64,000 bases of DNA from NCBI RefSeq assembly GCF_002854065.1, contig NZ_CP024147.1; one strand, given 5' to 3'. This DNA comes from Escherichia coli. GTDB lineage: Bacteria > Pseudomonadota > Gammaproteobacteria > Enterobacterales > Enterobacteriaceae. The translations under genes and the position numbers were made by a program. Shown piece by piece: positions 55,854 to 57,518 of the stretch (position 1 is its first letter; each line of letters starts with the position of its first letter). A model generated the notes under the pieces. That model worked only from the letters and a program-made list of their open reading frames with translations, had not been told where the DNA came from and did not search any database.

Positions 55854-57518
55854 ATGTTAAAACGTATCAAAATTGTGACCAGCTTACTGCTGGTTTTGGC
55901 CGTTTTTGGCCTTTTACAACTGACATCAGGCGGTCTGTTCTTTAATGCCTTAAAGAATGACAAAGAAAATTTCACTGTTTTACAAACCATTCGCCAGCAG
56001 CAATCCACGCTGAATGGCAGCTGGGTCGCGTTGTTGCAGACGCGTAACACCCTCAACCGCGCGGGTATCCGCTACATGATGGATCAGAATAATATTGGTA
56101 GCGGTTCAACCGTTGCTGAGCTGATGGAGAGTGCCAGTATTTCGCTGAAACAGGCGGAAAAAAACTGGGCGGATTACGAAGCGTTGCCGCGTGACCCGCG
56201 TCAGAGCACCGCCGCAGCGGCAGAGATCAAACGTAATTACGATATTTATCACAATGCGCTGGCGGAGCTGATCCAACTGTTAGGTGCAGGCAAAATCAAC
56301 GAGTTCTTTGATCAGCCGACCCAGGGATATCAGGACGGTTTCGAGAAGCAGTATGTGGCTTACATGGAGCAAAACGATCGGCTCTATGATATCGCCGTCA
56401 GCGATAATAATGCCTCCTACAGCCAGGCGATGTGGATTCTGGTGGGCGTGATGATCGTCGTACTGGCAGTCATCTTCGCCGTCTGGTTCGGTATTAAAGC
56501 CTCGTTGGTAGCGCCAATGAATCGCCTGATTGACAGCATTCGTCATATTGCAGGCGGCGATCTGGTGAAACCGATTGAGGTGGATGGCTCTAATGAGATG
56601 GGGCAACTGGCAGAGAGTTTGCGCCATATGCAGGGAGAGCTGATGCGTACCGTCGGTGATGTGCGCAACGGGGCCAATGCCATCTATAGCGGTGCCAGCG
56701 AAATCGCTACCGGCAATAACGATCTCTCTTCGCGCACCGAGCAACAGGCCGCTTCGCTGGAAGAGACGGCAGCCAGCATGGAGCAACTGACCGCAACGGT
56801 GAAACAGAACGCCGAAAATGCGCGCCAGGCCAGCCACCTGGCGTTAAGTGCTTCTGAAACGGCGCAACGCGGCGGCAAAGTGGTAGATAACGTGGTGCAG
56901 ACTATGCGCGATATCTCCACCAGTTCGCAGAAAATCGCCGATATTATCAGCGTAATTGACGGCATTGCCTTCCAGACCAATATTCTGGCTTTGAACGCGG
57001 CGGTTGAAGCAGCGCGCGCGGGTGAGCAAGGGCGCGGTTTTGCGGTGGTCGCGGGTGAAGTGCGTAATCTGGCCCAGCGCAGCGCTCAGGCGGCTCGTGA
57101 AATTAAAAGCCTGATTGAAGACTCGGTGGGGAAAGTAGATGTTGGCTCTACGCTGGTCGAAAGCGCAGGGGAAACAATGGCGGAGATTGTCAGTGCCGTG
57201 ACCCGCGTGACGGACATTATGGGCGAAATTGCTTCTGCTTCTGATGAGCAGAGCCGTGGTATCGATCAGGTTGGCTTAGCGGTTGCTGAGATGGACCGGG
57301 TAACTCAACAGAACGCTGCGCTGGTGGAAGAATCTGCCGCTGCCGCCGCCGCGCTGGAAGAGCAGGCCAGTCGCCTGACCGAAGCTGTGGCAGTGTTCCG
57401 GATTCAGCAACAGCAGCAACAGCAGCGTGAAACATCGGCTGTGGTAAAAAACGTGACGCCAGCTACGCCGCGTAAAATGGCAGTGGCAGATAGCGGGGAG
57501 AACTGGGAAACGTTTTAA
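55854..57518 (+). CDS. tsr: Tsr methyl-accepting chemotaxis protein I (serine chemoreceptor)
   Basis: 554 aa; HAMP and MCP signalling domains, C-terminal NWETF pentapeptide. Confidence 0.95.

Follow-up and report, generated by a model that had tools for sequence, protein, structure and literature searches.

The window, by which we mean the whole 64-kb stretch of Escherichia coli DNA that was analysed, carries on its plus strand a gene for the serine chemoreceptor Tsr, and the tether at the C-terminus of the encoded protein begins with a run of seven glutamines. The features considered here are the following.

55854..57518, plus strand: tsr coding sequence, serine chemoreceptor of 554 aa plus stop codon (from the open reading frame list, Pfam and genome matches annotated tsr)
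57402..57500, plus strand: C-terminal tether of 33 residues, I517-E549; as in PMC10561060, the count starts at I517 and stops one residue short of the pentapeptide
57405..57425, plus strand: seven glutamine codons Q518-Q524, CAGCAACAG CAGCAACAG CAG, that is 2.33 copies of a 9-bp unit
57501..57515, plus strand: NWETF pentapeptide N550-F554, read from the translation and invariant in the orthologue alignment
57530..57559, no strand assigned: hairpin with an 11-pair stem that separates the stop codons of the convergent genes tsr and lgoT; the minus strand has a T-run, and on the plus strand the stem is preceded by an A-run

The tsr gene and its surroundings

Pfam assigned to the protein the domains TarH (residues 1-176, E 5e-55), HAMP (217-263) and MCPsignal (327-484, E 2e-62), and its translation ends in ...SGENWETF. 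In the window, as in K-12, the gene lies between btsT and lgoT. In 5,382 E. coli genomes the annotation of the matching region is tsr, 1 nt separates the window gene from tsr of strain 720632, and several E. coli chromosomes are 99.9% identical to window positions 44000-64000. The domain architecture, the NWETF ending, the near-identity to the K-12 gene and the shared neighbours together identify the gene, as judged from sequence, as tsr, and serine taxis is the predicted role of its product. The original prediction had named the gene as tsr and had placed a run of seven glutamines near its C-terminal end, within 57400-57430, in the tether between the signalling domain and NWETF; both the identity and the position were borne out, the codons lying at 57405..57425.

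The genes flanking tsr vary among E. coli strains. Downstream lies either lgoT-lgoR or a TRAP transporter operon, and upstream btsT, hpaR, a MurR/RpiR regulator or a hypothetical gene. The hairpin at 57530..57559, with its runs of T and A, is probably a bidirectional terminator. An antisense open reading frame that spans the repeat (57217..57435, minus strand, 72 aa, poly-Leu/Cys from CTG/TGC) was rejected as a by-product of the repeat within a well-supported gene. Elsewhere in the window, a perfect 8-bp tandem (CCTTCGCA x 3.25) was observed at 16223..16248, intergenic and directly after 'ttcgagtccggcc', which is like the 3' end of a tRNA; ARAGORN found no intact tRNA at 16223..16248. Window positions 16100-16400 are covered by 15 of the 5,426 genomes surveyed, with most of the other matches (~1,080 genomes in all) starting at ~16212, and the region looks like a variable-DNA junction or the remnant of an attachment site.

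Anatomy of the repeat

The codons of the tract follow in the order CAG CAA CAG CAG CAA CAG CAG and thus contain at least two perfect head-to-tail copies of the 9-bp unit, by which the tract is a tandem repeat. Tandem Repeats Finder reported a period of 9 with the unit CAGCAACAG, 2.4 copies and 100% matches over 57405..57426, and its best score for the tract was that of the 9-bp unit and not of a triplet. No other perfect period-9 tract of equal length was found in the 64-kb window. The probability of a run of seven glutamines, calculated from the amino-acid composition of Tsr alone, is about 2e-6 to 8e-6, which argues that the run arose not by chance but as the product of a tandem repeat.

We compared the gene with that of K-12 MG1655. 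The K-12 protein, fetched for this comparison, has 551 aa and a run of four glutamines (Q4, in the context IQQQQRE) encoded by the tract CAGCAACAGCAG, so that the lengths of 551 aa and 554 aa given in the original prediction for K-12 and for the window were correct. Outside the repeat, 24 of 1,644 nt differ between the two genes (98.5% identity), and the 9-bp indel comes in addition. Residue differences of the window from K-12 are H178Y, T533N, A538T and E548G; of these only H178Y falls outside the tether, in which the indel also lies.

Length alleles among complete E. coli genomes

The length of the tract was surveyed by megablast in 5,426 complete E. coli genomes with queries of 132-150 nt, in each of which the allele stood in its natural flanks. 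Four allele classes were found, their counts being identity bands (at least 95%) of these short queries and not extracted sequences:

4 codons (Q4, K-12), 1.33 copies of the unit: 551 aa, 1,216 genomes at 95% identity or more
7 codons (Q7, window), 2.33 copies: 554 aa, 4,056 genomes at 95% identity or more
10 codons (Q10, other strains), 3.33 copies: 557 aa, 104 genomes at 95% identity or more
13 codons (Q13, other strains), 4.33 copies: 560 aa, 3 genomes, detected by a synthetic query and confirmed in RM14723

The four classes total 5,379 of the 5,382 genomes with a tsr match, and 44 of the 5,426 genomes gave no match to the 3' segment of tsr. The Q4 class is inflated by laboratory derivatives of K-12, 1,042 of its 1,216 members being at least 99% identical to the K-12 segment. 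As a cross-check, the 10-codon query placed 4,059 genomes where matches with a 9-nt gap should fall, and the span of the match fitted 4, 7 or 10 codons in each of 160 rows taken at even intervals from the three rankings. The lengths of Tsr annotated in RefSeq are likewise 551, 554, 557 and 560 aa. Three tsr matches lay on records classed as plasmids, one of them the 404-kb NZ_AP023206.1; they are perhaps pieces of chromosome wrongly assigned, or else large secondary replicons. In ETEC1717 the tsr annotation is that of a pseudogene, owing to an internal stop that lies away from the repeat and has no relation to it.

Every allele step seen in E. coli is of 9 bp. On the window haplotype, alleles of 1, 6 or 8 codons were not found, the synthetic 1Q, 6Q and 8Q queries having matched 7Q, 10Q or other forms with gaps; alleles one codon longer or shorter on non-window haplotypes could sit unnoticed in the 95-99% band. 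The survey of repeat length across strains that had been suggested with the original prediction thus revealed variation, and this variation proceeds in steps of 9 bp. The description of the tract as a CAG/CAA triplet repeat did not hold, since the unit has 9 bp and the alleles are Q4, Q7, Q10 and Q13, with no form found that departs from them by one codon.

Outgroups and polarity

For the polarity of the length difference, one genome per bacterial species was scanned with the pattern T-[EQ]-AVAVFR-[IM], which returned 102 loci with 92 distinct Tsr-like tails; E. albertii, E. fergusonii and Salmonella were not among them. Citrobacter, Enterobacter, Leclercia and others carry FRI-QQEQQ[RK]A-R[ED], and divergent Escherichia segments read QQEQQRQ-RE (E. 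coli 2020CK-00188), QQAQQRQ-HE and QQTQQRQ-HE. No gap is needed to align these 7-codon segments with the Q7 of the window. The tether, measured from the equivalent of I517 to the residue before the pentapeptide, has a modal length of 33 aa (54 of the 92 tails), the length found in the window, and that of K-12 is 30 aa. Furthermore, 554 aa is the commonest length among 57 full-length orthologues, of which none has 551 aa. The length of the outgroup segments, together with the modal lengths of tether and protein, indicates that the window has the ancestral and usual length and K-12 a derived one. Read from these sequences, Q4 of K-12 is a derived deletion of one unit, and Q10 and Q13 are derived duplications. 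Alignment with K-12 therefore gave a divided answer: the window is not of the reference length, being 3 residues longer as had been predicted, but the polarity is the opposite of the one assumed. The form that had been taken for an expansion occurs in ~75% of complete E. coli genomes, shows no gap against the outgroups and has the modal tether of 33 aa.

The tract of 2020CK-00188 (CAG CAA GAG CAG CAA CGC CAG) differs from that of the window by three bases in two codons, so that three base changes in two codons would suffice to turn a tract of this type into a perfect 9-bp tandem. Codon 548, next to the pentapeptide, is also of note. The window has G548 (SGENWETF), like most outgroups ([ST]G[DE]NWETF), and K-12 has E548 (SEENWETF); as the outgroups mostly have G548, the E548 of K-12 is a further derived state beside the pentapeptide. 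In addition, Tsr of Escherichia whittamii contains the 9-codon run QQTQQQQQQ (CAG CAG ACG CAA CAG CAG CAA CAG CAG) with a 9-bp duplication of its own (CAACAGCAG x 2), so that a repeat of this kind has also formed in a sister species.

Probable recurrent gain and loss of the unit

For a comparison of backbones, the repeat was removed from 19-20 tsr genes, which left 1,644 nt. One tight clade holds Q4 (BEN2908, APEC O1), Q7 (Q65, 98228) and Q10 (MS20673) on backbones 2-6 nt apart. RM14723 (Q13) is 5 nt from SC434 and ST80 (both Q10), and strain 94-3024 (Q10) does not differ from the window in the last 400 nt. Q4 was found on four distinct backbones (K-12, 1916D6/ETEC1717, APEC and EC416), also with different neighbouring genes, and Q10 on three. 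The occurrence of different repeat numbers on near-identical backbones indicates that units have been gained and lost recurrently and not in one event; short-tract homologous recombination could mimic this apparent recurrence or contribute to it.

Replication slippage between overlapping 12-nt repeats is the standard mechanism for the gain and loss of units of this kind. We propose that an older Q-rich segment, QQEQQRQ, would have become QQQQQQQ in the E. coli lineage, its DNA thereby becoming a perfect 9-bp tandem. This tandem would then gain and lose whole units, most likely by replication slippage, and the unit changes would have given rise to Q4 (551 aa), Q7 (554 aa), Q10 (557 aa) and Q13 (560 aa). 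Each unit corresponds to three residues of the tether, by which the reach of tethered CheR/CheB would be shifted only by a few per cent, and the variation among alleles is predicted to be, probably, close to neutral.

Position in the tether and expected effect

In an alignment of 46 orthologues the invariant columns end at I517 and restart at N550, whereas positions 518-549 are variable. The NWETF pentapeptide serves in docking (PMC10561060, PMC7390727). In PMC10561060, R516 is taken as the tethering point of Tsr and the 30 aa of its tether are counted from I517; strains Q65 and 98228 carry R516L (FLI for FRI) at this point just before the tether. For Tar with tethers of 22, 29, 34 and 46 aa, the reach of CheR was found to shift linearly by 0.128 ± 0.048 nm per residue with an intercept of 6.0 nm, and changes of 5-12 residues in the Tar tether matter (PMC10561060). 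When the Tar slope of 0.128 nm per residue is applied, 3 residues would shift the reach by ~0.4 nm on ~10 nm, and a 3-residue change in Tsr is thus probably near-neutral. Tsr at 33 aa is close to Tar at 34 aa, and natural receptor tethers of 29-39 aa coexist within one organism (10.1101/2024.03.07.583918). The effect of linker length on adaptation raised in the original prediction is plausible in principle, and for 3 residues in Tsr it is predicted to be small.

Published EPR evidence for disorder of the tether concerns Tar and not Tsr. In the AlphaFold monomer (mean pLDDT 70), residues 526-554 have pLDDT <50 and no secondary structure, and Q518-Q524 are modelled as the end of a helix spanning 390-527, with pLDDT ~50-70. 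The glutamine run may therefore be an extension of the helix or its frayed end, and not free tether, in a part of the model where pLDDT is low. The rise of a helix is about 0.15 nm per residue, so that three helical residues would give a similarly small change in length.

Alternative readings of the length variation

The repeat might be regarded as a natural dial of tether length, of which K-12 would hold an atypically short, derived setting (30 vs 33 aa). We consider this improbable, but it would have consequences: if three residues measurably changed serine adaptation, the quantitative parameters obtained with K-12 would not be representative of the species, and the series Q4, Q7, Q10 and Q13 would constitute a ready-made natural experiment on tether length.

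Also improbable is the reading that the four lengths are selected and optimise serine adaptation by niche. Repeat-number changes do recur on near-identical tsr backbones, the reach of CheR depends linearly on tether length and the other differences of K-12 also cluster in the tether. However, a slippage-prone repeat recurs without selection, the copy number is low (1.3-4.3 units) and one length dominates all deep tsr clades. The steps are also small when set against the 29-39 aa over which the tethers of other receptors naturally range (10.1101/2024.03.07.583918), and the hit lists show no link of allele to host or source.

That the window carries a strain-specific CAG/CAA triplet expansion, which lengthens the tether and alters the efficiency of adaptation, appears very unlikely. 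The 7-codon form is the majority form (~75%) and has the length of the outgroups, the steps are of 9 bp with no 6Q or 8Q on the window haplotype, and the predicted effect of 3 residues is ~0.4 nm on ~10 nm. Against these observations stand the 3 residues by which the window protein exceeds K-12 Tsr and the effect that changes of 5-12 residues have in the Tar tether (PMC10561060).

A sequencing or assembly artefact in this low-complexity stretch can be practically dismissed, since, even though short repeats are sometimes miscalled, thousands of genomes finished independently of one another share the identical 21-nt tract, the Q7 tail recurs in the construct of PDB 3ZX6 and the alleles differ by exact 9-bp units with the frame kept. 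The same holds for a contingency (phase-variable) locus that would switch Tsr on and off: the repeat is a tandem within a coding sequence and its copy number varies among strains, yet the 9-bp unit keeps all changes in frame, the four alleles encode intact Tsr of 551-560 aa, known phase-variable genes have far longer tracts and the sole pseudogene seen (ETEC1717) results from an internal stop elsewhere. With the frame kept in all alleles, repeat changes do not switch the gene, and phase variation was rejected.

We thus favour, with high though not full confidence, the reading of Q7 as the standard allele of ancestral length of an in-frame 9-bp repeat at the start of the tether, the units of which are most likely lost and gained by slippage, with a probably near-neutral effect. 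For specialists this carries the caveat that K-12, the reference strain of chemotaxis research, has a shortened Tsr tether. Moreover, the natural alleles with tethers of 30, 33, 36 and 39 residues could be used to test models of tether length in Tsr without artificial linkers.

Comparison with known systems

The window allele is an ordinary form of E. coli Tsr, already known from a deposited structure and carried by thousands of finished genomes. The structure, PDB 3ZX6 (an Af1503 HAMP-Tsr fusion), carries the Q7 run and a matching C-terminal ending; its chain is an engineered fusion, and it differs from the window in one tether residue (K-T-V vs K-N-V). PDB 6S1K holds the Q4 form of K-12, and the construct of 1QU7 stops inside the run. 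A literature search, which included E. coli VNTR, returned no description of a tsr polymorphism, only a 'TSR' reagent and 'TSR1-3' PCR targets.

Tsr of K-12 (MCP-I; PDB 6S1K for the full length and 1QU7 for the cytoplasmic domain) shares with the window protein the btsT-tsr-lgoT locus, the TarH-HAMP-MCPsignal architecture and the NWETF ending, and the window stands one 9-bp unit above it, with Q7 vs Q4 and a tether of 33 vs 30 aa. With in-frame polymorphisms of the VNTR type, which arise by slipped-strand mispairing, the tsr tract has in common perfect head-to-tail units, alleles that differ by whole units and recurrence on related haplotypes; in contrast to them, it has very few copies (1.3-4.3) and a single dominant allele. 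The tether itself resembles the flexible tethers of pentapeptide receptors (Tar/Tsr) as presented in PMC7390727 and PMC10561060 from the work cited there (Bartelli & Hazelbauer 2011, Li & Hazelbauer 2006), namely an unconserved arm of ~30-35 residues for CheR/CheB that leads from the last helix to NWETF. The known work on tether length was carried out on Tar, with 5-12 residues changed close to the pentapeptide, whereas in tsr the variation is natural, consists of 9-bp repeat units and lies at the helix-proximal end of the tether.
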